Positions 22,260-62,475 are shown, counted from the stretch's first letter. The stretch is DNA of 64,000 nt from Dehalococcoidia bacterium (GCA_965249275.1 CBDFLQ010000007.1:128001-192000), one strand, 5' to 3'. Notes: generated by a model from the letters alone, not told the origin. A program made the numbers and translations.

Positions 22260-22430
22260 AAGACTTTGCATAACCGTCATTCTCTCAGTGTCTGGCACCC
22301 CATCCGCAGGAGTGGGGCATTCCGCTCGCCCTGTCGCAGATGCGCCGTGGCGTAAGCTGAGTCGAAGGGTCTCAAGAGCAGAATGGGCGGGGCGTACCGC
22401 GCCCACACCCGGAGTCATGCAAAGACCTCT
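22260..22430. mobile_element. MITE-like element (CTTTGCATAAC ends) containing a REP with a 21-bp insertion
   Basis: GAAGACTTTGCATAAC ... GTCATGCAAAGACCTC; insertion at 22333-22353. Confidence 0.55.
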
Positions 22431-22454
22431 CGGCGAGTGAGAGTGAAAATCCCC

Positions 22455-23363
22455 TCACCCCTCAATCCCCGCGTAATGCAAACTTTGCCCGACAATATCC
22501 ACGCCCACAAGCTCGCTGTGCGCCGCCAGCAGTTGCCGAGTCACCGGCCCCGGTATCTCTCCCCCAATCGGCCTCTTGTCGACCCGGGACACGGGCATGA
22601 TCCTCGGGCTGGTACGGCTAAAGAACACCTCGTCGGCAGTGTATAGGTCGTATGGCTGAAGGTCTTCCTCGTAGGCCGGGATGCCGAGACCCTCGGCCAA
22701 CTCGAACACCACCTGCCTCGATACTCCCTGGAGAATGTTGTCGTCCTTCGGCGTCTTGAGAACTCCGTCGTTGACGATGAACACGTTGTACCCTAGCCCC
22801 TCGGTGACATTTCCTTCTACGTCCAGCAGAAGGGGCAGTCCCTCCGGGTCGACGTCCCGTGCCTCCAGCTCAGCCAGCACGAAGTTCATCCTGCTGTGGT
22901 GCTTCACCTTGGCGTCGAGCATCGAGCTGGAGTAGCTGCGCACCTTGGTGATGATGGCGTGCGCCCCGTCCATGTAAAACCTTGCAAATTCCTCGAAGTG
23001 TATCGGCTTGATAATCACGCACACACTCGGTGGCCCGTCCACCGAGGCCCCGCGAGTGATAATCGGGTTGATCGCAAAGTCCCCAACCTCGGCCCTCCGG
23101 TGGTCGTTCCTCGCCACTCCCTCGCGGCACACCTCTAACATCTCCTCCTCCCCGAATCCCGGGTCAACCCGCACGTACTTCAAAGACCGGTAAAGCCTGT
23201 TCACGTGGTCTTCCAGCCGGAACGGCACCCCACCGAATGTCCGCCCTTGATCGAAGACCACATCCGCCACCGCAAAGCCCCGATCGTGGGGCGGGAACAG
23301 TACCTCGCTATAAGGCACCCACTCCCCATTGAAATATGCCGTGTAGTCGTCGTAGTTTCCCAT
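22455..23363 (-). CDS. Class IV (branched-chain/D-amino acid type) aminotransferase
   Basis: AYFNGEWV, HDRGF, HVNRLYRS, EGLGYN, ILQGVSR, ADEVF; the ORF extension past 23363 is REP-derived. Confidence 0.9.
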   Translation of the reverse strand: MGNYDDYTAYFNGEWVPYSEVLFPPHDRGFAVADVVFDQGRTFGGVPFRLEDHVNRLYRSLKYVRVDPGFGEEEMLEVCREGVARNDHRRAEVGDFAINPIITRGASVDGPPSVCVIIKPIHFEEFARFYMDGAHAIITKVRSYSSSMLDAKVKHHSRMNFVLAELEARDVDPEGLPLLLDVEGNVTEGLGYNVFIVNDGVLKTPKDDNILQGVSRQVVFELAEGLGIPAYEEDLQPYDLYTADEVFFSRTSPRIMPVSRVDKRPIGGEIPGPVTRQLLAAHSELVGVDIVGQSLHYAGIEG

Positions 23364-23433
23364 CAATCTCCTCCTGATTTTCCCCTCTCCCTTGACGGGA
23401 GAGGGGTAGGGTGAGGGTGATCCTGCCCCCACA

Positions 23434-24600
23434 TTAACCAACAAATAACTTCACCGGAGCAACGGATTCGGTAGACCCATCCCCCACCAACTCAAACAAC
23501 TCCACCCCCTGCTCCCGAGCCATCCTCCTCAAAAACGCCTCCGCATCCACCCACCCCTCCGGACTCCCGACTCCCCTCCGCCCAATCTCCCCCGACGCCA
23601 CCATCAACGTCGCCAACGCCGCCACAGAGGTAGTTCCCCTCCTCGAATAGTCCTGCGCCTCGAATACCCGCTGGCACTGCTTCCCGTCCTTCTCTCCCTC
23701 CACCCTGACCCGCACAGCCATAGGTTCGTCCAACGGCTCGATGTCGAAATACGGCTTCCCCTCCTCCGACGACAGGAACGTCATCAGAAATTCCATCGGG
23801 TTGGTCTCGAGCCCCGGAACCTTCTCATACGACGAGAATCCCCACCGCACCATCGTCTCCATGAAGTTGTTCCCCTCGGCCTGGTGCAGCCCGCCGCTTG
23901 CCGTCACTTCGGTCAGGCTGGGTATCGACTGTGAGATGGTCACCGGGTCTGGAACGCCCGTGTAATACACCTCCTTCACCCCGACTGGCGGCAGAAACTC
24001 GATCTCTTCCCTATTGGCGAATGCCCCGGGTTTTACATAAGCACCATTGACAAACTGGGGCGCGAGCCCGCTGTTGATCCTCAGAAAGTGCTGTATCGCC
24101 GCCGGGTAGTTCAGCGAATAGTTCCACGAAAACCAGATATTCACCCGACGCGGGACGTCCATCCCGTCGCAGCCGTATCGAGCCAGCACTCCACTTAGCC
24201 CCGGCATGATCCCGCATCCCGTCAGCGCAGCGACTCCTGCCTCTTTTGCCCTGCGGTCCCAGTCCGGGTTGAAGAACAGCTCCTCCGTCGGTTCGTGGTC
24301 GTCGCCCATGTCCACGTAGTGCGTCCCCGACTCTATCGCCGCCTCTACTACCTTCAACCCATGCAGATGATAAGGCCCGACCGCGTTGAACACCGCGTCG
24401 ACTTTGCTTAGCGCCTCTTTCAACCCTACCCTGTCGTCCACGTCCAGCGTCATCCACTCGGCCCCCGTCCTCTCCGATACCCGCCGCGCCCGGTCCCCGT
24501 CCTTGTCCGCCGCTACCAGCTCTACTCCCTTTCCCTCTGCCGCGATCTGGTATGCGATCCCCCGGCCGTGGAACCCGCACCCCAGCACCATTACCTTCAT
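23434..24600 (-). CDS. Saccharopine dehydrogenase-like oxidoreductase
   Basis: VLGCGFHG, NAVGPY, HYVD, GCGIMPG; ATGA overlap with the upstream LLM. Confidence 0.8.
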   Translation of the reverse strand: MKVMVLGCGFHGRGIAYQIAAEGKGVELVAADKDGDRARRVSERTGAEWMTLDVDDRVGLKEALSKVDAVFNAVGPYHLHGLKVVEAAIESGTHYVDMGDDHEPTEELFFNPDWDRRAKEAGVAALTGCGIMPGLSGVLARYGCDGMDVPRRVNIWFSWNYSLNYPAAIQHFLRINSGLAPQFVNGAYVKPGAFANREEIEFLPPVGVKEVYYTGVPDPVTISQSIPSLTEVTASGGLHQAEGNNFMETMVRWGFSSYEKVPGLETNPMEFLMTFLSSEEGKPYFDIEPLDEPMAVRVRVEGEKDGKQCQRVFEAQDYSRRGTTSVAALATLMVASGEIGRRGVGSPEGWVDAEAFLRRMAREQGVELFELVGDGSTESVAPVKLFVG

Positions 24601-25592
24601 TGTCTCCCCAACAAAGGCGCCACCTCTTCGACGTACCGACCCAGCTGTTCCGTCATGTCCGGCCCCACGAAACGCAGCACGGGCGTCGTACACCCGACAT
24701 CCACGTAGGACTGGATCTTCTCCGCCACCTCTTCCGGCGGCCCGTACGCCACCCACAGGTCGATAAGTCCCGGTGTCACGAATGCGGGCCCGTAGTAAGA
24801 GACAAGGAATTGGTGGGCCTGTTCGTAGGCCACGTCCCTGTCATTGTGGATGTTCACCATCAGGTGCAGGCACGAGTCCAAAGCCCCCGCGTCCCGACCC
24901 ATCCCCGCTGCATACTCCCGTATCCTGTCGAATCTTTCCCTGAATTCCTGCGGTTCTATCGCGTCCGTCTGCCAACCGTCGGAATGCTTCGCCACCCGAC
25001 GCAGCACCCGTTCCATCAACTCCGGGCTATAGTCACCCTTGGGGTTTACAGCCAGCCACAGCGGGACCCGGGCCTGGACGGGCTTGGGTAGCGCGTCTAC
25101 TTCCTCGAACTGGAAGAAGCGCCCTTTGTGGGTAACCTTCTCCTCCGACCAGAGCCTCCGCAATATCTCCATCCCCTCCAGCACCCGGCCCACCCTCTCC
25201 CCCGACGCCACACCCATCACCTCTAGCTCTTGAGCGTATTGCGGCCCGTACCGGGCCGACCCGCCGTTTCAGACAGCCAGTATCGTTCTGCCCCCCGACA
25301 GCACGTCCAGGCTCGCCCACTGGATCGCCAGTTGGACGGGGTTGCGGAGTGGGAAGCTGGCCAGGCATATAGTGCCCAGCTTTACGTAACTGGTACGTGC
25401 AGCAATGGCTGACAGGAGAACAAGGTAGTCGAGCCTCGGCTTGGACAGCAGATTATCCCCGACCCAAACCCCGTCGAAGCACCCCGACTCCTCCGCCGCC
25501 ACCGCCGCATCCACCAACTCAGACACCGTCGTCCCCCCAGACACCACCGATCTGTTCGAAAGGCTTATTCCATAATTAACTTTGCTTACGAT
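24597..25592 (-). pseudogene. LLM oxidoreductase with in-frame TGA (pseudogene or selenoprotein)
   Basis: A single frame reads SKVNYGISLSNR...WVGD...GGRTILAV*NGG...PKPVQ; TGA at 25269-25271; no canonical start codon at the expected N-terminus. Confidence 0.7.
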
Positions 25593-25876
25593 GTTGTTAC
25601 CTTCCCTTTTCTGCTACGCCAACGCCGTATTCAGTGTCACTACTCGGCCCCGCGAGAACCTGAAGAGCTCCCCTGACCGACCACCCCTGGAGATCCCTTC
25701 CTTGGGCGGCGGGGCCGCTCACCCTGAGGTTCTCGAAGGGTCGAGTGGGGGGAGGCCCTGGACTGCCTTTCCGTTCCGTCCGACAACCCCTCACACCCTA
25801 AGGTACAACCATGCGGAATGTTATCATATCGCCCAGGCTAATCTAGCAGTACCCGCTATGTAATATCGGAGTTCCC

Positions 25877-27220
25877 ATGACAACCACCCACCCCAAAACC
25901 CTCGACACCATAATCGTAGGCGGCGGCATCGCCGGCCTAACTATCGCCTACCGACTCCAAAACCAGGACATCCTGCTCCTGGAAAAAGAGGACTACTGCG
26001 GCGGTCGCACCCTCTCCAAGCAGATGGGCGAGTACGTCTACAACATGGGCGCCCAGGTCGTAAACGGCGACGACAGCCTTGTCGCTCCCCTCGCCAACGA
26101 GCTAGGAGTGACCCGTAGCCTCATCAACAAGACCAAGCTCCCGATTATCATGAAGGGCAAGCTGGTAGCCGCCTCCAATGAGCCCTCCTTCCTCTGGCAG
26201 CTTCCCATTTCTCTCTCCGACAAGATCAAGCTCGGCTGGCAGGTGCTCAACCTCAGGCGCAAGTACGGCGAAGTGCGCAAAGACTTCCCCGACATCAACG
26301 ACCCCGATATCGTCCACCTCAACTCCATGACCCTCGCCCAGTACATGAATCTCGAATCCGGGGACCTCCGAGACATCTGGGACACTGTCGCCCTCGCCAC
26401 TACTACTACCCACGCCGGCGAGTCCTCTGCCTACCACCCCATCAGCACCTTCCTCCACTTCATGGCGAAGGAGTATTTCGTCAACGGCGGCACCTGGCAG
26501 ATCACCCGTGCCCTCTGGGACCGACTCTCCGACAGGATCGAGACCTCCGCCGAGGTTGCAAGGGTCGAGCAGGGCTCAGACGGCGTCACAATCACCTATT
26601 CCCAAGGGGGTCAGACCCACACCGTGCGCGCCCGAAAATGCGTCATGGCTGTCCCCGCGCCTGTCGCACTCCCCATAATCGACCCTCTTCCCGACTGGAA
26701 ACGCGAGGCCCTGGCCGCCGCCCGATACGGCTCCATAACCAGCGCCGGGTTCCTCCTCGACCGCAACTCAGAGGACTTTCTCGGAAAGGGTGTTTGGCGG
26801 GTCCCGACCGTGCGCAGCCGGCTCGTATCCGTTACAAACCCCACCATCACCTTCCCGCAGGAGGTAAAGGAAAGGACGGGCCAGGGTCTCCTGCGCGTCT
26901 ACACCGCCGACACAGAGTCCAAGCGGCTCTCCAAGCTCTCCGACGGCGAGTCCGTCGAGTCCCTCATGGAAGAGCTCTACGCCGTCCTCCCCGACACCCG
27001 TGGCCACGTAATAACCGGCGCCCTGAAACACTGGGAACACGGCGGAAGCCCTTGGCTTGTTGGTCGCCTGGCCCACGTCCCCAACATCCAGGCCCCCACC
27101 GACAACATCCACTACGCCGGCGACTACACCGCCGGCTCCGGCATGGACGCCGCCGTCCACTCCGCCTCCCGAGTCCTCACCGAACTAGGCCACGCCCCCC
27201 TCTTCCCCACCCCCGCCTAA
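25877..27220 (+). CDS. FAD-dependent amine oxidase/protoporphyrinogen oxidase family protein
   Basis: GGGIAG, LLEK...GGR, YAGDYT...GMDAAVHS. Confidence 0.82.
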   Translation: MTTTHPKTLDTIIVGGGIAGLTIAYRLQNQDILLLEKEDYCGGRTLSKQMGEYVYNMGAQVVNGDDSLVAPLANELGVTRSLINKTKLPIIMKGKLVAASNEPSFLWQLPISLSDKIKLGWQVLNLRRKYGEVRKDFPDINDPDIVHLNSMTLAQYMNLESGDLRDIWDTVALATTTTHAGESSAYHPISTFLHFMAKEYFVNGGTWQITRALWDRLSDRIETSAEVARVEQGSDGVTITYSQGGQTHTVRARKCVMAVPAPVALPIIDPLPDWKREALAAARYGSITSAGFLLDRNSEDFLGKGVWRVPTVRSRLVSVTNPTITFPQEVKERTGQGLLRVYTADTESKRLSKLSDGESVESLMEELYAVLPDTRGHVITGALKHWEHGGSPWLVGRLAHVPNIQAPTDNIHYAGDYTAGSGMDAAVHSASRVLTELGHAPLFPTPA

Positions 27221-27239
27221 CCCCCTCGCGACGCCGCCC

Positions 27240-27410
27240 TTTACCGTCACTCCTGCCTCCACAGGAATCCATCCAGCGGGGTCGGGCCGCTCACCCTGAG
27301 CGGAGTCGAAGGGTCGAGCGTGGGGGGCTCCGCGTCTCACCAACCCGCCACGCCCGCCTACCCTAACCCATTTGTCATGTCATCCCGAGGCCCCGCGAGG
27401 GATCTCAAGC
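27240..27410. repeat. REP-like cluster
   Basis: GTCACTCCTG..CAGGAATCC, GGGCCGCTCACCCTGAG..., and GTCATCCCGAG...GGGATCT units. Confidence 0.65.
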
Positions 27411-27490
27411 GCATCTTCCGCCAAACATTGAATTGTAGAGGCAACTCACACCTCTCTACTGGGGTGGCGAGGGGGAACTCCCCCCGAAAC

Positions 27491-27874
27491 CTAACTAGGT
27501 ATACAAGCCGTCACCATAATCTCCACCAACAGGTCCGGCCTGTTTAACATCACCTCCACCGTGGCCCTGGGCGGCTTGCTCACCGTAAAGTGCTTGCCAT
27601 ACTCCTCATTGAAATCGGCAAGGTCCTCCCTCTTCGTAAGCCAGCAGTTCACCGACAATACGTTCTCCAAGTTCGTGCCCGCCGCGTCCAACACCCTCTT
27701 GATCCGCTCGATCGTGAAGCGAGTCTGCTCCGCCACGCCCTCTCCCAGCTTCCCGGTATCCGGGTGCGTCCCCGTCTGCCCCGCCACGAAAACCAGGTCT
27801 CCAAATCTCGCACCCGGCGAAAGGTTCGGGTTCCCGCCCTTCATATCGACGTTGATAATTTCCTTCTTCGGCAT
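27491..27874 (-). CDS. RidA/YjgF family protein
   Basis: FVAGQ, EQT, FNEEY, PPRATV, VEI. Confidence 0.9.
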   Translation of the reverse strand: MPKKEIINVDMKGGNPNLSPGARFGDLVFVAGQTGTHPDTGKLGEGVAEQTRFTIERIKRVLDAAGTNLENVLSVNCWLTKREDLADFNEEYGKHFTVSKPPRATVEVMLNRPDLLVEIMVTACIPS

Positions 27875-28569: not shown

Positions 28570-28679
28570 CCGGCCATGCTAACTTGCCCTAGTGGCAGTG
28601 GCAAGGAGTGAATCACCGTTTTTCTAGCGTACGTATGAATCGAAGTCACGCCTCAGTCTCAATGAGATTCCACCCCACC

Positions 28680-40541: not shown

Positions 40542-40696
40542 TCGCTTTCCGACACTCCAGCGTCCGATTTCGGCGGTTAGTATATACCCTATCCCACCCC
40601 TCATCCCGCCCACCCCTCGCCCTCCCTCCCCTTTCCCGCGACACGGGCCGAAGTTTCGCCGTGGCGTGAATCCATCCTCCAACCTCCCGTCATTCC

Positions 40697-42704: not shown

Positions 42705-43025
42705 GCCCCCCCACAAGGAATCCGGGGCAGGGCATTCCACTCGCCCTGAGGCTCTCGAAGGGTCTCAATGACGGAATGGTGGGTGGCCCTTCCTACCCCA
42801 CCCACCCACACCCTTGTCGTGTCATCCCGAGGCTCCGCGAGGGATCTAAGGCGTAGGCCCACCTTTTCAGCGATTACTTGAATGCTCCCGGTGGCCGAGA
42901 CGCACCGCCCTCTCCCGTCATCCCACCCTCCCGAGCCGGTCGAAGATGCTGCAAGTGCTCATTTGGCGTGCGCCGAGGCGTGAATCCATCCCACCCCCAT
43001 CCTCTTCCCCGTAGGGGCAGGTCTC
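42705..43025. repeat. REP mosaic with a nested 43-bp insertion
   Basis: Several REP types; doubly nested insertion at 42939-42981. Confidence 0.7.
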
Positions 43026-44703
43026 GGAGTCTGTTTCATAAGTTATAGGCATATGGAGTAGGCTATGGTGGACAAGGTAGACAGCGTCATAAGGAGGTGA
43101 CTGGGGATGCCACATCGACCGATGAACCGGGAACAGGTATGGATGTTGCCGCCGAGTCTCGACGAGATGCTGGGGGCCGGTCATTCTGCTCGATTTGTTG
43201 CTGAGTTCGTCGATGCCTTGGATGGAGAGGGCTGGGCAGGGATTGGGATTGATAGAGACGGGGAGGCGATGGGAGCGCCGGCCTACCATCCCCGTGCGCT
43301 GTTGGGTGTGTGGCTGTACGGCTTCATGACCGGTGTGCGATCGAGCCGCAAGCTGGAGGCGGCCTGCTGCGACCAGATACCGTACCTTTGGCTGACGGGC
43401 TGCCAGCGCCCGGACCACGTGACGTTGTGGCGGTTTTACAGCTCGCATCGGGATGGTATGAGGAAGCTGCTCAAGCGGACGGTGCAGACGGCGGTTAATA
43501 TGGACCTGGTGGAGATGGCGGTGCAGGCGGTGGACGGGACGAAGATTAGAGCGAATGCGGCAAAGGACCGGACCTACGACGCCGCTGGGTTGCGCCGTCT
43601 GTTGGGCCGTTTGGAAGGTGCGATAGACGAGTTGGAAGCGCAGAACGAGGCTGGGGAGGAGTCGGCTATCGGCCATCTGCCGGAGAGGTTGCAAGACCGC
43701 AAGGCATTGCGTGAGCGGGTGCGTGAGACGGTGCACAGACTTGCCGATCGGGATGGGCAAAAGCAGATCAACCTGACCGATCAGGACGCCCGGATGATGA
43801 AGACGCGACAGGGTTATGCGGTGGCCTACAACGCCCAGGCGATGGTCTCTACGGTAGCAGCGGCTGAGGGTAAAGCGCCCGGCATGCTGATCACGGCAGT
43901 TGATGTGGTGAACGACATATCCGACAGACGGCAACTGGGTGCGATGATGGAGAAGGCTGAGGAGACGTTGGGACAAAGGACGGAGATGACGTTGGCGGAT
44001 GCGGGCTATCACTCCGGGAACAATCTACAGGAGTGCGCCCTAAGAGGCCAACGGGTGGTGATGCCTGAGTCGCAGGACCGGGCGCTGCAGAGCCCGTATC
44101 ACAAAGACCGTTTCACCTACGACGAGGCGAGCGACAGCTACCGTTGCCCCGAGGGCCGGTTGCTGCGCTTCACTCGCACCAAGCGCACTCGCAACACAGC
44201 AATGCGGCTCTACCGGGCATCAGGGGCCGTGTGCCGGGCCTGCCCGGCCTTCGGGGTCTGTACGAAAGACAAGCGTCATGGGCGTGCCCTGGAGATCGGT
44301 TCCCACGACGCTGCGTTGCGTCGACACCGGGCCTGGATGTCCACCGAAGAAGCCAAGGGTGCGTATAAACAGAGAATGCAACTGGTAGAACCGGTCTTCG
44401 GTATCATCAAGGAGCAACAGCAAGCCCACAGGTTCCTGTTGCGTGGCTTAACCAACGTCTCGGCTGAATGGAGCCTGCTCGCCACAGCCTTCAACTTGCG
44501 CACCCTGTGGAGGATACGGCGAGCCGCAGCTACCTGGACAAAGCATTGGGTAGCCGAGGGCGCATACTCGGCCTATCGGGCGCTTCGGACGGCAATCGTG
44601 GGCACACTCAGCCCCCTGCTTCGATTAATGCGGCTCCGCCATCAGCCAGCCCGACCAAGCCAACTCCCCACGTCAAGCACAACCTACATCTGAAACAGAC
44701 TCC
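43026..44703 (+). mobile_element. IS1182 family element
   Basis: 13-bp TIR GGAGTCTGTTTCA / TGAAACAGACTCC; no clear target duplication. Confidence 0.85.
43107..44693 (+). CDS. IS1182 family transposase
   Basis: YHPRALL, SSRKLE, PDHVT, VDGTKIRANA, TDQDAR, YNAQ, ADAGY, VEPVFG; stop codon lies inside the TIR. Confidence 0.92.
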   Translation: MPHRPMNREQVWMLPPSLDEMLGAGHSARFVAEFVDALDGEGWAGIGIDRDGEAMGAPAYHPRALLGVWLYGFMTGVRSSRKLEAACCDQIPYLWLTGCQRPDHVTLWRFYSSHRDGMRKLLKRTVQTAVNMDLVEMAVQAVDGTKIRANAAKDRTYDAAGLRRLLGRLEGAIDELEAQNEAGEESAIGHLPERLQDRKALRERVRETVHRLADRDGQKQINLTDQDARMMKTRQGYAVAYNAQAMVSTVAAAEGKAPGMLITAVDVVNDISDRRQLGAMMEKAEETLGQRTEMTLADAGYHSGNNLQECALRGQRVVMPESQDRALQSPYHKDRFTYDEASDSYRCPEGRLLRFTRTKRTRNTAMRLYRASGAVCRACPAFGVCTKDKRHGRALEIGSHDAALRRHRAWMSTEEAKGAYKQRMQLVEPVFGIIKEQQQAHRFLLRGLTNVSAEWSLLATAFNLRTLWRIRRAAATWTKHWVAEGAYSAYRALRTAIVGTLSPLLRLMRLRHQPARPSQLPTSSTTYI

Positions 44704-44864
44704 CCGTGCCTGCCCAGTCCCCACGCCCGCACACCTTGACCCGCAGAACACTGAATGCGGTAACCTCCGGGCCTGTCCGTCCCCTCTCCCTTAAAGGCCC
44801 AAAGGCGTCGTAGACCCGCCTTTAGCGGAAGAGGGGGCCAGGGGGAGAGGGTTCCCTATCCGCT

Positions 44865-45844: not shown

Positions 45845-46035
45845 GGGCCGGGGCCGCTCGTGCTGAGCCCGTCGAAGTATGAGCGGGGCGGGGGCCAATC
45901 CCCTCTCCCTCGGCGGAAACTTTGTACAACTGTCATTCCGAGGCCCCGCGAGGAATCTGGGGCTGGGTCCCATCCCCTCTCCCTTGACGGGAGTCGTAGA
46001 TGCGCCGAGGCGTGAGGGCTAGGGCTAGGGTGAAC
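45845..46035. repeat. REP mosaic with a 21-bp insertion
   Basis: Three REP types; insertion at 45993-46013. Confidence 0.7.
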
Positions 46036-47300: not shown

Positions 47301-48498
47301 GGGAAGCTCTGAACAACTCACTGTAAACCAGCTTAGGTTGTCTTGCATGGAGTTTTGGGGAGAGGTTGGGTCGTAATGTTGCGTCTCGGTGGCTTATTTG
47401 CATCCTATGTTCTGGCCTGTCAGGGCATCCAGTCACCATCGACCCGGATTTGACCACACTGCTCCTCCGTCACACCGCTAAGTGGCGCTCGGCCCTTACC
47501 AAGTTGGCCAGCCCCAGCAGCATCGCCACCCGTTGCGTGTTCTTGTACAAGCCCCTGTAGCGGACCTTGGCGTAGCCGAAGTGCCGTTTCACGTACAGGA
47601 ACGGATGCTCCACCTTAGCCCTGATGGATGATTTGCTCTTCTCCGCTAAGGCCTCGCAGCTCCCCGCCCTCAGTTTCCGACGCCGTCCAGGTCTCATCGC
47701 CACCCGCCACTCCACATCCATATCCCGATTCTCCGCCCGCTTCTCCACTCCCTGATATCCCGCATCTCCCCACACTCGCCTCTCCCCTCCATGCAGCAGC
47801 CGGTGCGCCTCCGTCACGTCATGCACGTTCGCAGCTGTCGTACTCATACTGTGCACCACCCCCGTGTCAGCGTCTGCACCAATGTGCACTTTCATACCGA
47901 AGTGCCACTCCTTCCCCTTCTTCACTTGGTGCATATCGGGGTCTCGCTCTCCAGCACGGTTCTTCGTAGACGCCGGCGCCTCGATGATGCTCGCATCCAC
48001 AATCGTACCCTCCCTGAGCCTCAGTCCCCGAGACTCCAGATGACGGTTGATCTCCTCGAACAGCCCCCGACCCAACTCCTGCTCTTCCAGCAGATGGCGG
48101 AAGTTCAGTATCGTAGTCTCGTCAGGCAAGGGGCCGGACAGCCTCAGACCTGCGAACCGCCTCACCGACTCCACCTCGTAGAGCATGTCCTCCATGCCCG
48201 GATCGCTCAGGTTGTAGAACAGCTGCACGCAGTGTATCCGCAGCATCACCGACAACTCGTAGGGCCTCCGTCCACGGCCCGCCCTGGAATAGTAGGGCCG
48301 GATTCGCTCCTCTAACTTTCCCCATGGAACCAGGTCCTCCATCCGCTCCAGAAATATCTCCCGGCGGGTCTTTCGCTTCTTGCCCTCGTATTCCAAGTCT
48401 GCAAATGTCGGCTGCTCCATCAAATCTCACCTCAGCTTTGGCCTTACTCTCCCTATCTTACCTATTACCTATGCCCTTAGACTTGTTCAGAGGTTTCC
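47301..48498 (-). mobile_element. IS5 family element
   Basis: 16-bp TIR GGGAAGCTCTGAACAA / GGAAACCTCTGAACAA; flanks TTAG and CTAG. Confidence 0.88.
47470..48420 (-). CDS. IS5 family transposase
   Basis: LSDPGMED, PDETTILNFR, VDASII, FGMKVHIG, GDAGY, RAKVEHPF. Confidence 0.93.
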   Translation of the reverse strand: MEQPTFADLEYEGKKRKTRREIFLERMEDLVPWGKLEERIRPYYSRAGRGRRPYELSVMLRIHCVQLFYNLSDPGMEDMLYEVESVRRFAGLRLSGPLPDETTILNFRHLLEEQELGRGLFEEINRHLESRGLRLREGTIVDASIIEAPASTKNRAGERDPDMHQVKKGKEWHFGMKVHIGADADTGVVHSMSTTAANVHDVTEAHRLLHGGERRVWGDAGYQGVEKRAENRDMDVEWRVAMRPGRRRKLRAGSCEALAEKSKSSIRAKVEHPFLYVKRHFGYAKVRYRGLYKNTQRVAMLLGLANLVRAERHLAV

Positions 48499-48915
48499 TA
48501 GATTCCTCGCGGGGCATCGGAATGACAGGGTTAAGGGGGTTGGAGTGGGGGAGGGGCGGACGCGACGGATCGGCAATGCGTGGACTGCCCCCGCTCGACC
48601 CTTCGACGGAGCTCAGGGTGAGCGGCCCTTCCCCAAGGATGGATTCACGCCTCGGCGCATCTTTGACCGGCTCTCTCGGCAGTCGGAATGGCGGAGGGGG
48701 AGGGAGTCCCGGCTCGGCGGGGGGGTGCGCCTTCAGGAGGGATGGATTCACGCCTTGGCGCATCTGCGACCTGCCTCCGCAGGAAAGACGGATGAGGGGT
48801 GGCAGTGTGGGGCGGTCCCCGCTCGCCCTTCGACCCGCCTCAGCGGACTTACAGCAAGCTCAGGGTGAGCGGCCCCTCACAGGGATGGATTCCGTCTCGG
48901 GGGCCGGAATGACGA
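48499..48915. repeat. REP mosaic with three 21-bp insertions
   Basis: Insertions at 48647-48667, 48750-48770 and 48835-48855; an uninserted unit at about 48887-48914. Confidence 0.75.
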
Positions 48916-54106: not shown

Positions 54107-54421
54107 GAGAGCTTTGCACAACTACAGGTTGCCTCTGCTGTACTGTCCGGATCACGTAACCTCCACCCCCCGCTCATACTTCGAGAGCCTCAGCACGAGC
54201 GGCCCCGGCCCCACCGCGGGAGGTTAGGCAAAAATCTCATCAAGGGAGAGGGGATGGAACGCTCGCACATCATTCAGTTCTTGGGATCCCCTTCGAGAGC
54301 CTCAGGACAGGCTTCGACTTCGCTAACGCCACGGCGCATCTTCGACAGGGCGAGCGGAATACCCCGCCCCTGGGGATGGAGCCCGACTCGGGAGCAGAAA
54401 TGTCGGTTATGCAAGGGTCTC
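54107..54421. mobile_element. MITE-like element (GAGA[G/C]CTTTGCA ends) filled with REP units
   Basis: GAGAGCTTTGCACAAC ... GTTATGCAAGGGTCTC; insertion at 54326-54346. Confidence 0.6.
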
Positions 54422-55399: not shown

Positions 55400-56110
55400 A
55401 CGCCGCTCATACTTCGATGCTTCATAGGCGGACTTGCAGCGGGCTAAGTATGAGCGGCCCCGCCTCCGGAGACTGGATTCACGCCATGGCGCACGCCAAA
55501 GGCGCATCCTCCCGAGGCGGACGTTCCGCTTGCAGCATCTTCGACCGGCTCGGAGGCCGAAATGACGGAGAGGGAGGGGCAGGATGAGGGTGTTTTAGGG
55601 GTGGGAGTCGTAGGGATGTACGTCCGGTAGGGATATATGCCTTAGGTTCCTCGCGGGGCATCGGAATGGCATGGTTGGGGTGGTGGGTTGGCGAAGAAGT
55701 TTCGCGGTGGACGCTTGTGCAACTCCGGGTTGGGGCGGAAACGCCCTGCCCATTCCGCTCTTGAGACCCTTCGACTCGGCTTACGCTATGGCGCATCTTC
55801 GACAGGGCGAGCGGAATGCCCCGCCTTTGGGGAGGTATTCACGCCTCGGCGCACGCCAAAGGCGCACTTTCAGCATCTTCGACCGGCTCGGAGGCCGGAA
55901 TGACGGAGAGGTAGGGGCAGGATGAAAAGGTTTTAGTGGTGGAGAGCGATATGGGTACGACTACTAGGGACATGCGCCTTAGATTCCTCGCGGAGCCTCG
56001 GAATGACAATGATTAGGGTGGTGGGTTGGGGGCGGAGGGACGTGACAGATTGGCAGTGCGTGGACTCCCCCCGCTCATACTTCGACGGGCTCAGCACGAG
56101 CGGCCCCGCC
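55400..56110. repeat. Large REP mosaic with an internal ~200-bp duplication and nested insertions
   Basis: About 55476-55690 resembles about 55836-56030; insertions at 55418, 55481-55545, 55783 and 55841-55883. Confidence 0.78.
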
Positions 56111-57256
56111 TCAGGACAGGCCGTAGAGGCGGGCGCAGTTGTCCCAGAGGATCTTTCGCAGGCTGTCGTGGGGGAAATCGAGGGTGAGTAGCATCTCCAC
56201 GGACTTGGGGTAGCGGCTGTCGGGGTGGGGGTAGTCGGTGGAAAAGACAATGTTGTCATCGCCAAGCCAGTCGATGGCATACTTGCCGGGCGCTTCGTCG
56301 GCCTCGACGGAGGTGAAGCACTGGCGTTTGAAGTACTCGGAGGGCATGAGGGGCAGCCTATCCTTGAGAATCGACTCCCTGTGCTCGTAGTGCTCGTCCA
56401 TGCGCCAGATCCAGAACGGCGACCAGCTGCAATTCCCTTCGAGGAAAGCGAACCTTAGAGTTGGAAATCTCTGGGTGACGCCCCCCATGATGATCGCGAG
56501 GCAGGCGTACATCTGCTCTATGGGATGGGCGGCCAGGTGCTCGGTAGTCCAGAGGTTTTCGTGGTTGCCGTCGAAACGTTCTCCCATAGCAACAGGAAGC
56601 TCACAGGGAGTGCCTTCGTGGAAACCGACGGCGAGGTCGAATGCCTGGCACTCGGCCCAAAGAGGGTCATAGTAGGGGTGGTTCCAGTTGCGGCCCTGGA
56701 CGGGGTTGGGGCGCAGGAATACGCCCTTGAAGCCGAAGTCCTGGGCCACGCGTCGGGTCTCCGCAATGGCGGCGTCTATATTCTGGGCAGGGACCATGCC
56801 CGAACCGAACATCCTCTTGGAGTCGCCCTGGCAGAACTCGGCGAGCCAGTCATTGTAGGCGCGCGATATGGCTGCTGCCAGCTGATCATCGTCGTAGACC
56901 TTGGCGTGGGCGAAGAGGCCCATGGAAGGGAAAAGCAAGGCCAGGTCTATCCCCTCAGCGTCCATGGCCTCGACCTGGGTGTCGGGGCCCCAGCCCCGGT
57001 CCTGGAAGGCGAGGAATTCATCGAACCTGCCGTAGCGCTTGGCTAATTCGACGTACATTTCCCCTTCGTCGGCGAAGTTGTCCTGATTGCGGGCGATGAC
57101 TCTACCATCGTGCTTGAGACGAAGGTCCATGAAGTACTCTTCCGCACCTACGGGGGCGAGGTCACGGAACTCGGGTGAGATGTAGGTCTGCCAGAGGTCG
57201 GCGGGCTCCATGACGTGCATGTCGCTGTCGATGACCTTGAAACCGTCCTTAGCCAT
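56111..57256 (-). CDS. Amidohydrolase_2 family protein
   Basis: DSDMHVMEP, YNDW, FHE, EGNCSW, TDYPHPD. Confidence 0.9.
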   Translation of the reverse strand: MAKDGFKVIDSDMHVMEPADLWQTYISPEFRDLAPVGAEEYFMDLRLKHDGRVIARNQDNFADEGEMYVELAKRYGRFDEFLAFQDRGWGPDTQVEAMDAEGIDLALLFPSMGLFAHAKVYDDDQLAAAISRAYNDWLAEFCQGDSKRMFGSGMVPAQNIDAAIAETRRVAQDFGFKGVFLRPNPVQGRNWNHPYYDPLWAECQAFDLAVGFHEGTPCELPVAMGERFDGNHENLWTTEHLAAHPIEQMYACLAIIMGGVTQRFPTLRFAFLEGNCSWSPFWIWRMDEHYEHRESILKDRLPLMPSEYFKRQCFTSVEADEAPGKYAIDWLGDDNIVFSTDYPHPDSRYPKSVEMLLTLDFPHDSLRKILWDNCARLYGLS

Positions 57257-57299
57257 TGCGGTGCCCTCCTTCGGGCTGGGGGTCTTTTGCAAGCCAGTA

Positions 57300-57475
57300 T
57301 CACTCTCTCGCGCCTCGGCGAGACTACGGCCTCAGCCCTCTCGCGCCTCGGCGCATCTCCGACCCATCGAGATATCTTTGCGTAACTGCTGATCACGCTA
57401 GTGGTGCCATCCAGGTTACCTGACGTCCCTCCCCCGCTCATACTTCGAGAGCCTCAGCACGAGCGGCCCCGGCCC
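57300..57475. repeat. REP mosaic with two 21-bp insertions
   Basis: Insertions at 57310-57330 and 57343-57363; REP unit at 57431-57470. Confidence 0.7.
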
Positions 57476-57523
57476 CTCCGGCAGGCAGAGGTTTCCTTAG
57501 TGCATTGTCCACCTTGGGCGTGG

Positions 57524-58138
57524 CTACTGCAACGGGTTGAAACGCATTGCGAGGCGAGGAAGCCAGTTACACGGGCGGTCGGGGAGGGGTCCTCGGACGA
57601 TTTCGAAGCCGGCGCGTTTGAAGAGGGGCTCGGTTCCGAAAAAGATATTGTCGGCGCCGGTGCGCTCGTTTCCGGCTCGGGGGTAGGCCTCCACGACAGG
57701 AGCGCCGTACTCGAATGCATATCGAGCCGCTGCCCGAATAAGGGCCACGGCGACGCCCTGGCCGCGTGCATTCCTGTGGACGGTCACGCAAGGGATAACC
57801 CAGACATCCTGATCGTCCACCCTGGGTGTGGCCCGGGACTTCTCGATGCGAGCAAGCTCGCTCCGGGGGGCGACGGCAACCCAGCCCACGGGGTCTTCTC
57901 CCTGGAAGGCGAGGAGGCCCGGAGCGTAAGAGCGTCGGGCCAGGTCTTCCATAGCTGCACGGCGGCGCTGAGAGCCGGACCCTTCGCCGGGGAGCTTCTT
58001 CCATTGGGCGCCTGGGATACGAGGGAACATGCACCAGCAGGTACTGCCCCAGCTTCCCCGGAGGACTGTCCTCATGCTGTCCAACAGGTCGGGGGTCAGG
58101 GGTCTGATGTCCAGAGTAGATGTCCCGGTAGTAGTCAT
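57524..58138 (-). CDS. GNAT family N-acetyltransferase
   Basis: CWCM, PVGWVAVAPR, RGQGVA, VEAYP, FKRAGF. Confidence 0.88.
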   Translation of the reverse strand: MTTTGTSTLDIRPLTPDLLDSMRTVLRGSWGSTCWCMFPRIPGAQWKKLPGEGSGSQRRRAAMEDLARRSYAPGLLAFQGEDPVGWVAVAPRSELARIEKSRATPRVDDQDVWVIPCVTVHRNARGQGVAVALIRAAARYAFEYGAPVVEAYPRAGNERTGADNIFFGTEPLFKRAGFEIVRGPLPDRPCNWLPRLAMRFNPLQ

Positions 58139-58323
58139 AAGCTGATTACCCCCTGACTGCAAGTCTATATGGCCAAATCAGGATTAGGATGCGAAAGTAT
58201 CCCGCGTAAGGATAACAGGTAAAAAAGCCCGGTTTGACCTATGGGTAACAAGGGGCCCGAAGCGTTGGGGTGGGGGCTTAGAAGTTACCGATCGGGAGGG
58301 GGCCTATGGCCTTGCGACCGTGG

Positions 58324-58587
58324 CTACCAGCGGGGGCGGCGGGGCTCTTTGGGTCGGGCCCGGTCTACGGTAAGGGGTCTGCCCTTGAGCTCTTTACCAT
58401 TCAGGCCTTGAACCGCAGCTTCACCTTCGCGCTCGTCAGTCATCTCGACGAAACCGAAACCGCGTGAGCGGCCGGAATAGGGGTCGGTGATCACGCGTGC
58501 CGAGTCGACAGTGCCGAAGGGGTCGAAAGCTTCTTTCAACTCCTCATCGGTCAGACTATAGGGAAGGTTGCCGACGAAAATGTTCAT
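58324..58587 (-). CDS. RRM RNA-binding protein
   Basis: IFVGNL and RGFGFVEM. Confidence 0.95.
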   Translation of the reverse strand: MNIFVGNLPYSLTDEELKEAFDPFGTVDSARVITDPYSGRSRGFGFVEMTDEREGEAAVQGLNGKELKGRPLTVDRARPKEPRRPRW

Positions 58588-58927
58588 GAACAGGTCCTCC
58601 AGGGCCAAGTATCTCCTGCTTCGAAACCCCTATCTTCCAAGCTGGAAGCAAGCGTTTACTACGCCCTTTCGGGGATACCGAAGATGGGGAGCATTCTACC
58701 ATACAAAAGATAAATGCAACTACCAGAACACATTGTTACGCATTTCCCAAAGACTCTTACATAAGGTGTATTTAAGGGCTTAGCCAGCGAGTGGAGCAGG
58801 GGCAACGTTGGGAAACAATGCGTCCCGTTTGCCGGCAGTCGTATAATCACCAGAACTCCTTGGAAGGGCGACCGTCGCCCTTCCGGAACATCAAAGAGAC
58901 CGCCGGGGAATTGGGGGATATTGGGTC

Positions 58928-59308
58928 ATGGGCGCGCGGCGTCAACTTATCGACGTAACTTATTCGTTCTTAGTCGCGCTAGGGATTGCGGTGATTATGA
59001 TTATGATCGTCACCGCGTTCCAGGACCGGCCCGACCTGGATGACGAGACACGGGAGCGGGTAGGGTTTCTTCTGCTGTTCCCGGTGTCTATTGCGATAAT
59101 AACGGGGACGATAGGCTTCGGGCTGTCGCTGATAAATTGGAGGGAATGGCGCCTGTTGATACTGGCGTTCCTGGGGGTGATAAGCCTAGTAAATGCAATA
59201 CTTGACGTATCGAACGCGCTTACCTATTTTGGCGTATCGATTTTCCTAGTGTTCGGAATGTATTTTGCCGTGGAGTGGTTCGGGGTCCGGCGTCGGCGCA
59301 GGGTCTAA
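58928..59308 (+). CDS. Hypothetical 4-TM membrane protein
   Basis: 126-aa ORF with four hydrophobic segments and a basic C-terminal tail. Confidence 0.65.
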   Translation: MGARRQLIDVTYSFLVALGIAVIMIMIVTAFQDRPDLDDETRERVGFLLLFPVSIAIITGTIGFGLSLINWREWRLLILAFLGVISLVNAILDVSNALTYFGVSIFLVFGMYFAVEWFGVRRRRRV

Positions 59309-59316
59309 GGCCGGGC

Positions 59317-59946
59317 CTAAGCCCGGAAGGCGAGCATAAGACCATCCCGCAGGGTAAGCAGAACGTTGTTGACCCGGGGGTCATTGGTAACGTAATCGTT
59401 CAAGGCGTTTATGGCCTTATCGCTCTCATCTTTCGGGTCCAAAACCTTCCCTCCCCACAGGGTGTTGTCCACTGCGATCACGCCTCTGGGCGCCAGCAAG
59501 TCGATGCATTTTACATAATAGTTCAGGTAGTTGGTCTTGTCGGCATCGATGAAGACGAGGTCGAAGGGGCCTTGGAGGGTGTCGATAGTGTCGAGAGCGG
59601 GGCCGACTCTTAGGTCGATCTTCTTGCCGTGGGGTGTCTTGGCGAAGAACTCGCGGGCCAGGGATCGAGGGGCTATGTCGCAGGTTATGAGTTCACCGTC
59701 CTCCGGGAGAGCATGTGCCATCATGAGGGCGCTGAATCCTGTGAAGGTGCCAATTTCCAGGACTCGCTTGGCTCCGGAAACTCGGATGAGTGCCTGGAGG
59801 AGGGTGCCGATGAGGCGGTCGGAAAGCATTTCGGCGTCGGGTGCCGAGTTGTAGGTCGCCTTTCTGAGTTCCTCCATGACTGGGGGGAGGGGGGTGGTGT
59901 GGTCGAAGGCGTAGTCGTCGATTTCTCGGGGGACGATGCCGATCAT
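59317..59946 (-). CDS. Class I SAM-dependent O-methyltransferase (caffeoyl-CoA OMT-like)
   Basis: LEIGTFTGFS, FIDADK, DNTLW, RDGL. Confidence 0.92.
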   Translation of the reverse strand: MIGIVPREIDDYAFDHTTPLPPVMEELRKATYNSAPDAEMLSDRLIGTLLQALIRVSGAKRVLEIGTFTGFSALMMAHALPEDGELITCDIAPRSLAREFFAKTPHGKKIDLRVGPALDTIDTLQGPFDLVFIDADKTNYLNYYVKCIDLLAPRGVIAVDNTLWGGKVLDPKDESDKAINALNDYVTNDPRVNNVLLTLRDGLMLAFRA

Positions 59947-59980
59947 GGATTACTCCTGTGGGGGGTGGGGGTCAATGGGT

Positions 59981-61114
59981 TTAGTTGAACCGGGGTATGA
60001 CCTGCTCGGTGAAGAGGGTTAGGCTTCGCATCACCTGCTGGAAGCTTAGCCCCGGGAAATTCAGGAAGAGGGCGATGTGCTGGCAGTTGAGCTCTGTGCG
60101 GTAGCGTTCGATCTGTTCTGCTACCGAGTCCGGGGTGCCGACCATTATGAGGTCGTGCTTCCTCTGGAAGTCGAACCAGTCCAGGTCTAAATCGCCGTCT
60201 TCTATTTCTCCCTCTATAAACGAATCTCTGGATGCCTTCATCGGGTCGCGCTTGTTCCACACGCCGAGCATGTTGGCCCCCGGCCTGACGGCCTCTAAGG
60301 CTTCTTCCATGGTGTCGGCGACGTAGGTGGCGATCATCACGGAGAGCTTATCGCCGAAGTTGTTCTCTTCGCCTCTCGCTTCCTTAGCGGCGTCGTAATA
60401 GGTGTTCCAGATTTCCCTTATCTTGCCGAGGGAGACGGTCTGGCACATGGTGGATATGCCTCGTCTGCCGGCCAACTTGTGGGAACTGTTGGAGGTTGAC
60501 ATCTGAAAGATGGGTGGGTGGGGTTTCTGGACAGGCTTGGGGTGTACGCCGAGAGCGACCATCTCGCCATCGTCGGCGTGGTAACGGGGGTCTCGGACCC
60601 ATTCGTTGGGTTCGTGCCAGCCGGGTTCAGGGAAAGTAAAGTGGTTGCCCTGATATTGGAAAGCTTCCTGTTTCCAGGCGTCTATGATGACATCCAAGGC
60701 CTCGTTGAAGAACTCGGAGTTGACCTTGGGGTTTCGCCGGTCTCCCGCCGAACTGAACTGGGCGGAGGCCCGGGTGTCGAAGCCACGGGCGATGCCGAAG
60801 TCGACACGGCCGTCAGTGAAATTGTCCAGGAGCGCGATGTCCTCCGCGACGCGCAGGGGATGCCAGTCGGGGAGGATGGTGCCGCACTGGCCGATTCTGA
60901 GGTGGTCGCTGTTCTTGATCAGGCCCGCGCCCATGAGAATGGGGTTGGGGGAGGCGCGGTACCAGCCGTCCCAGGCGAAGTGGTGCTCGGCGAGCCAGAG
61001 GCCTGTGAAGCCTCCCTGGTCGATGAGCTTAACCTCCTGGTGCATCTCGTCCATCAGGGTGTCCCAGGAATACTGCTCTCCGACGTGATAGTAGGGTGTG
61101 CAATCGAACCTCAT
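59981..61114 (-). CDS. LLM oxidoreductase (tandem paralog)
   Basis: WLAEHHFAWDGW, HPLRVAED, GRVDFGIARG. Confidence 0.92.
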   Translation of the reverse strand: MRFDCTPYYHVGEQYSWDTLMDEMHQEVKLIDQGGFTGLWLAEHHFAWDGWYRASPNPILMGAGLIKNSDHLRIGQCGTILPDWHPLRVAEDIALLDNFTDGRVDFGIARGFDTRASAQFSSAGDRRNPKVNSEFFNEALDVIIDAWKQEAFQYQGNHFTFPEPGWHEPNEWVRDPRYHADDGEMVALGVHPKPVQKPHPPIFQMSTSNSSHKLAGRRGISTMCQTVSLGKIREIWNTYYDAAKEARGEENNFGDKLSVMIATYVADTMEEALEAVRPGANMLGVWNKRDPMKASRDSFIEGEIEDGDLDLDWFDFQRKHDLIMVGTPDSVAEQIERYRTELNCQHIALFLNFPGLSFQQVMRSLTLFTEQVIPRFN

Positions 61115-61212
61115 TTGTCACCTCGTGTCTGGTCTGGGGTGGATGATCTTTGAAGAGTCCGAATCACCCTCACCCTAGCCCTCTCTCGTCAAGGGATAGG
61201 GGACTATTTTTG

Positions 61213-62346
61213 TTAAGCGAACTTGGGGATGATGCGGTCGGAGAAGAGGTGGAGGGAGTTCATGACCTGCTGGAATGATAGGCCGGGGAAGTTGAGGAAA
61301 AGGGCGATGTGCTGGCAGCGGGTCTTTGATTGGATGCGCTCAATCTGCTCGGAAACCGAGTCAGGTGAGCCGACCATGATCAGGTCGTGCTTGAGCTGGA
61401 AGTCGAACCAGTCGGAATCCAGGTCTCCTTCTTCCATCTCCTCTTCGATCAGTGTGGCCTGCCGAGCCTTGTGAGGGTTTACCGACGACCAGGCAGCGAG
61501 GCGGTTGGCACCGGGCCGCACGGCTTGAACTGCCTCTTCGTAGGTCTCGGCGAGGAAGGTTGGGCGCATGACGGCGACGCCCTCTCCGGTAGGGACGGGA
61601 CGCCCAAGCCTCCCGGAGGCTGCCTCGTTGTGGGCGGCGAAGGCCTCGTTGATTCTACCGGGGGACAGGGAGGCGCACATGGCGCTGTAACCCTTCTCTC
61701 CCGCGTAGCCGAAGGAGCCGACGGTTTCGGCCATGATGTAGACGGGAGGCCGGGGTTGTTGGTAGGGGCGGGGTGTGACGCCGAGGGCGATCAACTCACC
61801 GTCATCGGCGTGGTACTTGGGATCCCGAACCAGGGGGTTGGACTCATACCAGCCGGGTGTCGGGTAGGTGTAGAACTCGCCCTTGTAGGAAAAGGCGTCG
61901 TTTTCCAGGGCCTTGACTATGATTTCGAGGGCTTCTCGGAAGAGGGCGCGGTTGTGTTCCGGGTCTCGGCGGTCGGCTTCCTTGAAAAACTGGATGGTGG
62001 AGCGGGTGTTGATTCCCCGCCCTGCGCCGAAGTCGACGCGGCCCTTTGTCAGCTGGTCCAGGATGGCGATGTCCTCGGCGACGCGGATGGGGTTCCAGTC
62101 GGGGATGATGGTGCCGCACTGGCCGACACGCATCCTGTCGCTTTCGGCAATGAGGTCAGCGCCGACGAGGATGGGGTCGGTCGGGGCACGGTACCAGCCG
62201 TCCCAGGCGAAATGGTGCTCAGCGAGCCAGAGACCGGTGAAGCCGCCCTGGTCCATAAGGCGCACTTCTTCCCGCATCTCGCGGACCAAGGTCTGCCAGG
62301 AATAGTCCTCGCCGACGTGATAGTAGGGTGTGCTGTCGAACCTCAT
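61213..62346 (-). CDS. LLM oxidoreductase (tandem paralog)
   Basis: MRFDSTPYYH start; same motifs as its neighbours. Confidence 0.92.
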   Translation of the reverse strand: MRFDSTPYYHVGEDYSWQTLVREMREEVRLMDQGGFTGLWLAEHHFAWDGWYRAPTDPILVGADLIAESDRMRVGQCGTIIPDWNPIRVAEDIAILDQLTKGRVDFGAGRGINTRSTIQFFKEADRRDPEHNRALFREALEIIVKALENDAFSYKGEFYTYPTPGWYESNPLVRDPKYHADDGELIALGVTPRPYQQPRPPVYIMAETVGSFGYAGEKGYSAMCASLSPGRINEAFAAHNEAASGRLGRPVPTGEGVAVMRPTFLAETYEEAVQAVRPGANRLAAWSSVNPHKARQATLIEEEMEEGDLDSDWFDFQLKHDLIMVGSPDSVSEQIERIQSKTRCQHIALFLNFPGLSFQQVMNSLHLFSDRIIPKFA

Positions 62347-62414
62347 ATTCAACCTATTGCCGGGACTAGGAGCGCTGCCTAACGTTAAGTCTGCGGAGCT
62401 TTAAGGGATGGGAA

Positions 62415-62475
62415 TCACCCTCACCCTAACCCTCTCACGCCTCGGCGCATCTACGACCCGTCAAGGGAGAGGGGA
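62415..62475. repeat. TCACCCTCACCCT..CCCTCTCCC..AAGGGAGAGGG REP with a 21-bp insertion
   Basis: Insertion at 62437-62457; an uninserted sister unit at about 61164-61202. Confidence 0.75.

Follow-up and report, generated by a model that had tools for sequence, protein, structure and literature searches.

How does a sequence of only 21 nucleotides (nt) come to lie, base-precisely, inside hairpin repeats that are unrelated to one another? The question is raised by a 64,000-nt stretch of DNA of a Dehalococcoidia bacterium (CBDFLQ010000007.1:128001-192000), hereafter the window, which is C7:128001-192000 of genome G000 (2.9 Mb, 7 contigs, C7 among them, 59% GC, 87% complete). We compared G000 with eight sister species, nine genomes of one genus in all, the syntenic region being present in all eight at 78-95% identity. 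The element in question is a 21-nt unit, U1, with its sister forms, whose copies have been gained singly and base-precisely into hairpin-capable DNA. These units are probably a family of minimal 21-22-nt, non-coding, non-autonomous mobile DNA modules, mobilised in trans through single-stranded DNA (ssDNA). The original prediction, made on the window alone, had described such micro-insertions; the identity of one host as an Ssn-related motif (SRM), the strand rule, the spread across phyla and the nesting rule, all described below, had not been seen.

A unit of two small hairpins

U1 (ACGCCWCGGCGCATCTNCGAC) was found by pattern search in eight copies in the window (Table 1) when up to two mismatches were allowed, and 100 shuffles gave 0 matches. 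Genome-wide, with up to three mismatches, there are 78 copies, as against 0 in the reversed genome used as control. Three sister forms accompany it, namely U1b (CCGCC..GGCGG-ATCTNCGAC), U2 (..GGCGS-ACTTNCAGC; 21-22 nt, 32 copies in G000) and U3 (..CTCRGCGAG-NCTWCGRC; 25 copies in G000), and the controls for U1, U2 and U3 in the 2.9 Mb were 0. Ten 21-bp sites had been claimed for the window: eight are the U1 copies, and the remaining two, 40647 (-) and 57310 (+, a U3), are real but divergent. As regards the second variant that had been proposed, 48835 is a U2, the copy placed at 55418 is a decayed one, 44807 (-) is plausible, and 15722 does not fit the unit. Three nests and the divergent unit at 17366 (-), all listed in Table 1, had been missed.

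The unit consists of two consecutive mini-hairpins, parts A and B. Part A, x-CGCC-N2-3-GGCG-y, is 12-13 nt long, with a 4-bp GC stem and a 2-3-nt loop (in U1, ACGCCWCGGCGC), and corresponds to the hairpin start already described by the original prediction. Part B is a nonamer, A-YY-TNC-RR-C (in U1, ATCTNCGAC), whose positions 2-3 and 7-8 covary (TC..GA 65, CT..AG 18, CC..GG 7), both pairs being Watson-Crick in 101 of 254 generic matches and in 10 of 144 control matches, a covariation that points to a constraint on the folded single strand. Nearly all true copies have either B or a further A after part A. As had been stated earlier, there are no terminal inverted repeats and no target duplication; the junction ambiguity is a single nucleotide, a C. 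The preceding base is mostly C or T, and no fixed target word was seen upstream of the unit in the flanks from G000 and from other phyla. The unit is non-coding, and by a crude gene model, also used for the orientation counts below, 75 of the 78 copies in G000 are intergenic. The 9-nt tail was considered as a target duplication and dropped, as empty sites do not have any such sequence. A classical miniature inverted-repeat transposable element was ruled out by the missing inverted repeats and the 1-nt junction ambiguity. A search of Rfam over 40-64 kb of the window gave 0 matches.

Precise gain inside unrelated hairpins

At least four unrelated host families, one more than the minimum of three first claimed, hold U1: an SRM (family A) and the REP-like families B, C and D, which are GC-rich hairpin repeats. 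Family A (GGATGGATTCC-stem-loop-stem-GGAATGACGG) is the reverse complement of the published NTS/SRM consensus CGTCATTCCCGCGMAVGCGGGAATCYRG. The Ssn paper (Chenal et al. 2025) describes this motif as bound, as ssDNA, by the GIY-YIG nuclease Ssn, and gives the SRM consensus as CGTCATTCC-stem-loop-stem-GGAATC, oriented and flanking ssn genes (PMC11893778). Motifs of the type GTCATTCC...GGAATC number 126 in G000 and 0 in the control, and family A has the features of the SRM, which also flanks small GIY-YIG genes on either side in the sister genomes G008 and G004. Family A is an SRM, and SRMs prove to be preferred landing sites of the unit, themselves strand-oriented.

Host repeats exist filled and empty. 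By strict patterns for the four families, G000 has 131 empty and 40 filled copies. The empty family B copy at 23382-23418 is as first described. When 11 nt on each side of every copy were taken and the genome was searched for the content between the same flanks, the gap contents proved discrete: mostly nothing, else 21 or 22 nt, and less often 30, 43 or 65 nt. With the flanks tcgagagcctc/agcacgagcgg, for example, there are 51 sites, of which 39 are empty, nine contain 21 nt and three contain 22 nt. The two insertion points 2 bp apart in family B (45993 and 62437) are likewise as described. In predicted ssDNA folds, 63 of 73 distinct reconstructed empty sites have the junction inside a helix, and 31 junctions lie in the 5' arm or at its junction with the loop, as against 12.5 for shifted junctions.

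The longer fillers are units within units. Nests always form at the A|B junction of the older unit, giving A[A'B']B, and reach up to three levels, the 43-nt filler being a two-level nest and the 65-nt filler having a third unit inside the second. One example is ACGCCTCGGCGC[ACGCCAAAGGCGCACTTTCAGC]ATCTTCGAC. The types in nests match internally (A with ATCT.CGAC, A' with ACTT.CAGC) and the inner and outer units differ; such matching of the A and B types indicates that whole units were inserted. The 30-nt ABB forms fit a history in which two A parts stood side by side and one was lost. These forms, and nests placed exactly at A|B, would also be expected if the 21-mers were scars of a larger element, bounded by A on the left and by B on the right, that entered hairpins, excised imprecisely and re-inserted at its own scars. 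A search of G000 for a host flank and A, separated by 70-6000 nt from B and a host flank, returned 13 pairs, every one of them two separate complete units, and 2.9 million viral contigs gave 0 matches to the unit pattern. Together with the regular succession of B or another A after A, and with nests made of whole units of different types, this makes the scar explanation improbable.

Empty orthologous sites in relatives, to which the original prediction had directed attention, do exist. The host repeat of window 62437 is empty in G006 and G007, has a 22-nt variant in G001 and the 21-mer in G000, and is missing from the other five genomes. At C6:61621-61916, G000, G005 and G003 are empty, G002 has a U1, and in G001 the same host is occupied by a U2 at a different point; the history of this locus is gain, twice. 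In G005 the SRM at C7:723935 is empty, while that of G002 contains U1 and that of G000 contains U1[U2], which is stepwise growth. The spacer at C5:351207-351492, where unit numbers of 0, 1, 2 and more were found, has no repeat at all in G004 and, at the other extreme, a multiply nested array in G003. When units of relatives were traced to G000, the alleles differed cleanly by 21 nt at C6:61621, C6:126415 and C5:351207, and by 21 versus 43 nt at C7:723935 and C5:186932. The flanks of such orthologous alleles are up to 96% identical, the sole difference being 21-22 nt. An unbiased indel spectrum of G000 against 400 kb of G002, drawn from 360 kb of alignment, declines steadily from 1 nt upwards and has a second peak at 21-22 nt, with eight indels of 21 nt and four of 22 nt, against 1, 2, 0 and 2 at 19, 20, 23 and 24 nt; judged by eye, six of these 12 are units.

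These alleles bear directly on the explanation that nothing moves autonomously, a few ancestral composites of host and unit having been copied as blocks, or units having spread by gene conversion within a host family. Several filled copies of one family do have near-identical flanks, and with so many near-identical host copies, conversion between them is plausible and could add to the spread within a family. The unit, however, occupies no fewer than four host families that are unrelated to one another, with two positions 2 bp apart in one of them, as well as the inside of earlier units and unrelated hairpins of other phyla at 33-65% GC. The copies are not traceable to a few composite blocks, the other outcome that would have refuted the original prediction, and orthologous loci differ by the unit and nothing else. 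This explanation is already largely refuted, and we consider it very improbable.

Two observations touch the host repeats themselves. A 23-nt module (cccttcgagagcctcaggacagg) at window 54288-54311 shows precise presence and absence within host family C, with further alleles in L046/L072 against G000 C5:351253-351492 and in L070 against C5:489475-489801; it resembles the core of host family D, and the host repeats may be assembled from such modules. In the dnaE open reading frame of G000 (C5:342507-346295; L228:108-3896, minus strand), the PHP to OB-fold domains end at residue 1053, and the frame continues for ~200 residues, with no stop, through an SRM with a nested unit pair (...VEDVEDAPRRAPGRESIP...) and through another motif; the reading frame appears to have been lengthened by the repeats.

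Strand, distribution and the missing enzyme

The orientation of the units follows base composition. In G000, the G-rich strand carries 67 of the 78 units (54 of 57 where |skew| is at least 0.08), independently of the direction of the flanking genes: units on the G-rich and C-rich strands number 21 and 2 where both flanking genes are on the C-rich strand, and 11 and 1 where both are on the G-rich strand, while the genes themselves show no skew bias (725 vs 673). In the window, all six copies left of 46 kb are on the minus strand and all 11 right of 48.6 kb on the plus strand. This flip, between 46.0 and 48.6 kb, coincides with a change in the sign of the skew, and beyond it most genes are on the minus strand while the units are on the plus strand. 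A replicate on 400 kb of G002 placed 18 of 24 units on the G-rich strand. By convention, the G-rich strand is the lagging-strand template.

The flip, of the skew and of all repeat orientations, is bracketed by two IS5-type DDE transposase genes (DDE_Tnp_1 + DUF772) at 43107-44693 (+) and 47470-48423 (-), and instead of an origin the skew switch in the window may mark an inversion breakpoint. As for the GTCATTCC...GGAATC motif, its Ssn-cleavable strand is the C-rich one in 88 of 96 cases with clear skew (window examples, 48637-48700 and 48740-48800) and would thus stay off the exposed lagging-strand template. In the Ssn paper, the terms 'lagging' and 'leading strand' each have 0 occurrences (PMC11893778).

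Within the genus, U1 is present in seven of nine genomes. Species have their own dominant loop variants, CA in G001 (20 of 29) and TA in G004 (18 of 23), as expected for separate bursts. G006 and G008 have 0 U1, 1-2 U2 and 0 U3 despite carrying the host repeats, a patchy distribution among sister species that favours a specific factor moving horizontally. In a sample of 401 Dehalococcoidia genomes, 11 gave any match, and multiple copies were found only in the genus of G000 and in G338, which has nine copies while its three congeners have none.

The exact 21-mer was also sought across phyla, one genome per species. It occurs in at least 76 stretches in at least 36 assemblies, where ~2 chance matches would be expected for equiprobable bases. 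By the labels of the assembly records, the matches listed include eight Dehalococcoidia assemblies, and others from Planctomycetales/Phycisphaerae, Ignavibacteria/Kapaibacterium/Bacteroidetes, KSB1, Verrucomicrobia groups and Thermodesulfobacteriota/Desulfovibrionales, with one single match in a haloarchaeon. Units of other phyla lie in local hairpins at a locus GC of 33-65%; five such genomes have 6, 34, 4, 9 and 16 copies, with controls at 0, and their neighbours in 47 non-Dehalococcoidia loci (83 open reading frames scanned) are ordinary housekeeping genes of no common family. Multiple copies, local hairpins and housekeeping neighbours argue that these are not mis-binned Dehalococcoidia contigs, and the presence of one identical 21-mer in different phyla speaks for a conserved specificity.

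This distribution is relevant to the idea that no dedicated enzyme is involved, the replication fork stalling at a hairpin and the nascent strand switching to a distant unit, copying it and returning. Such templated insertion would suit targets that are hairpin-forming and strand-specific, as well as the lack of classical transposase families. It sits poorly with a junction homology of just 1-2 nt and with unit boundaries that are identical in every host and phylum; moreover, the same host hairpins are present in G006 and G008, whose lack of U1 and U3 argues for a specific factor that is either present or absent. We therefore give templated insertion little credence.

No enzyme encoded in cis was found. 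The unit is too short to code for anything and its neighbouring genes are ordinary, two observations that suggest mobilisation in trans. The four G000 genes with units on both sides encode a luciferase-like protein, two glyoxalases and an amidohydrolase. The Y1_Tnp profile (PF01797) matched none of the nine genomes of the genus and six of 14 control genomes; no units were found within ~1.5 kb of Y1 at the six best-scoring Y1 matches of other-phylum genomes, and in genus g115 Y1_Tnp is present in the unit-bearing genome and in three unit-free ones alike. The Y2_Tnp profile had no match in the genus, but none in any control genome either. Among five genomes tested, the RVT_1 reverse transcriptase was found only in the unit-free G006 (six matches) and G008 (one) and in none of G002, G004 and G007; TnpB was found in one of five genomes, and Uma2 in all nine genomes of the genus. 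A Y1 transposase and RVT_1 were accordingly rejected as the mover in this genus, where there is no Pfam-recognisable Y1_Tnp and RVT_1 was found, among the five genomes tested, only in the unit-free ones. The presence of GIY-YIG, one of the gene types whose correlation with the units the original prediction had proposed to check, does not track the units.

GIY-YIG enzymes deserve a closer look, as the unit might be the cognate single-strand hairpin site of a small, Ssn-like GIY-YIG nuclease, multiplying as SRMs do. Its architecture is that of the NTS/SRM, a hairpin plus a conserved oriented flank kept across phyla (PMC11893778). Small GIY-YIG genes are present in five of five other-phylum genomes tested, and in one Ignavibacteria genome units lie within ~250 nt of three of eight GIY-YIG loci. 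At one of these three, however, the unit is clearly inside the gene-flanking Ssn motif, and the proximity may reflect target choice. G008 has two Ssn-type genes flanked by their motifs and no units, G007 has units and no small Ssn-type gene was found there, and in a second genus GIY-YIG is present in its one unit-bearing and its three unit-free genomes. We regard this explanation as unlikely.

A second type of small GIY-YIG gene (81-104 aa) adjoins a tRNA gene (Asn, Cys, Pro or Asp) at L151 and L168 (G002, G005) and at L169, L170, L171, L172 and L180 (other phyla). At L151/L168, L169 and L180, a broken second tRNA copy follows the GIY-YIG gene, its anticodon arm replaced by a GC-rich hairpin (in L180, a unit-like sequence), and the arrangement looks like a tRNA-targeting mini-element.

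Returning to mobile modules moved through ssDNA, and granting that the units do move, the mechanism to which we commit is a lagging-strand-template unit moved by a structure-specific single-strand enzyme, a proposal that we give an even chance. The unit would fold while the lagging-strand template is exposed, and the enzyme, supplied in trans and horizontally spread, would cut at the unit ends. The unit, or a copy of it, would then enter a different hairpin region, also single-stranded, by being joined immediately 5' of a C, and the A|B junction of units already in place would be a favoured insertion site. The precise gain, the hairpin targets, the nesting point, the strand rule, the covariation and the patchy, cross-phylum spread are shown by the data, whereas single-strand chemistry, the link to the replication fork, action in trans and horizontal transfer are inferred from them.

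Several points weigh against this interpretation. As no mobilising enzyme was found, we infer the mechanism, and with G000 87% complete, a gene missing from G000 alone is weak evidence. Junctions favour the 5' arm only in part, with 14 sites in 3' arms and 12 in loops. The empty host repeats of all four families obey the same strand rule (125 of 131) and units in G000 are always co-oriented with their host, so that the bias of the units could be inherited from the hosts, the two being inseparable in G000; the only hint to the contrary is one Ignavibacteria genome with the unit in both orientations relative to the Ssn motif (two sites). The equation of the G-rich strand with the lagging-strand template is a convention here, and the skew profile of the contigs is a mosaic with many switches. 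The polarity, gain versus precise loss, is settled by outgroups at only two or three loci. Finally, window 57310-57342 differs from G005 by a 33-nt indel made of one U3 and a 12-nt copy of a host segment of the CCCTCTC type, a filler type that recurs elsewhere in G000 and that a simple insertion model leaves unexplained.

Window copies and known systems

The features of the window are collected in Table 1. The U1 copy at 55783 has two T, and contigs from four public runs have C there, which restores the consensus. Among the same short Logan contigs, one contig set skips the whole repeat at 62337-62489.

Table 1. Units, nests and an empty host repeat in the window (positions from its first nucleotide)
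Feature	Position	Strand	Host or context
Divergent unit (ATGCCTCGGCGGATCTACGTC)	17366..17386	-	CCGCTC...GAGCGG-type host repeat
U1	22333..22353	-	Host family C (..cttcgactcagctt/agggcgagcgg.., unit at the slash)
Empty host family B copy (caccctcaccct..ccctctcccgtcaagggagagggg)	23382..23418	-	
Divergent unit (ACGCCACGGCGAAACTTCGGC)	40647..40667	-	SRM (ggatggattc/ccgtgtcgcgggaa)
Nested pair, 43 nt: U1 + 22-nt U2 at hairpin/tail junction	42939..42981	-	SRM
Probable variant unit (CCGCTAAAGGCGGGTCTACGAC)	44807..44828	-	
U1	45993..46013	-	Host family B, 2 bp upstream of the insertion position at 62437; orthologous copy in G005 (L037)
U1	48647..48667	+	SRM (ggatggattc/cggctc..)
U1	48750..48770	+	SRM variant (ggatggattc/ctgcctccgcaggaa)
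U2 (CCGCCTCAGCGGACTTACAGC)	48835..48855	+	Host family C (cccttcgac/aagctcagggtgagcgg)
U1	54326..54346	+	Host family C
Decayed U2	55420..55440	+	Host family D
Three-level nest, 65 nt	55481..55545	+	SRM
U1	55783..55803	+	Host family C
Nested pair U1[U2], 43 nt	55841..55883	+	SRM
U3 (GCGCCTCGGCGAGACTACGGC)	57310..57330	+	
U1	57343..57363	+	Family-B-like host
U1	62437..62457	+	Host family B

By analogy, the closest known system is SDR5, as the original prediction had aptly suggested for SDR elements in general. Elhai et al. reportedly described nesting of SDRs and the lack of target duplication in 2008 (Genome Res 18:1484), and we know of no enzyme or mechanism for very small mobile repeats since those cyanobacterial elements. 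The unit shares with SDR4/5/6 a non-coding size in the 21-27-nt range, copy numbers above chance, precise presence and absence at orthologous loci, nesting and the lack of a target duplication. SDR5 is a dispersed, non-coding element of 21 nt that inserts between bases 3 and 4 of the HIP1 palindrome, GCG|ATCGC (PMC4390886, PMC13756078), with its role and mechanism still given as unknown as late as 2026 (PMC4390886, PMC13756078, PMC5861425), and SDRs are reported in Nostocaceae only (PMC5861425). The present family differs in being found, with an identical 21-mer, in Dehalococcoidia and at least five other phylum-level groups, in targeting Ssn motifs and REP-like hairpins, and in showing a replication-strand rule; the comparison with SDR5 is one of description (size, target, precision) and not of sequence.

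Other systems share part of this logic. REP/REPIN sequences are ~20-nt extragenic hairpins with a conserved oriented flank, multi-copy, forming mosaic arrays and thought to be mobile as single strands (PMC3116915). The unit is likewise a short, multi-copy, extragenic hairpin with an oriented flank, but it inserts singly and nests, in contrast to inverted REPIN doublets, and no RAYT (Y1 HUH) gene was found in the genus. As in the case of the SRM, the hairpin and oriented flank of the unit are conserved across phyla; the unit, however, has no match to the NTS consensus, interrupts SRMs, and is missing from G008 despite its Ssn genes with SRMs. The unit was for this reason rejected as an SRM itself, as its sequence differs and as G007 has the reverse combination, units and no small Ssn-type gene found. 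IS200/IS605 elements, which move by 'peel and paste', are also hairpin-based, with neither inverted ends nor target duplication. Their orientation was reportedly tied to the lagging-strand template by Ton-Hoang et al. (2010, Cell), and the ~10 nt between the foot of the hairpin and the 3' end of the unit are reminiscent of an IS608 right end. The unit differs from them (and from their PATE derivatives) in being a single terminal hairpin module rather than having two distinct ends, in the lack of a fixed 4-5-nt target word, and in that no TnpA (Y1) was found in the genus. Thus, despite the similar logic, membership in REP/RAYT and IS200/IS605 fails for want of a Y1 enzyme. No prior description of this unit family was found in a literature search, most subscription journals being outside its reach.

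The unit is one of the smallest mobile DNA elements seen. A bolder reading, rather doubtful in our judgement, is that the two-hairpin 21-nt unit is the smallest known free-living genomic parasite, moved by an undescribed ssDNA cut-and-join activity or by a hijacked conserved fork enzyme; if true, it would explain why the same 21 letters are found in at least six phylum-level groups, from 33 to 65% GC, and yet turn over between sister species. Whatever the mover, the family makes the open question of the SDRs testable, as filled and empty alleles exist between sequenced sister species, and sister genomes with and without units suit gene-content subtraction. The substrate is a defined 21-nt sequence with a covarying fold, and the strand rule points to ssDNA at the replication fork. 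As a tool, too, an enzyme able to cut a single-stranded module of 21 nt and join it at chosen hairpins would be of interest.

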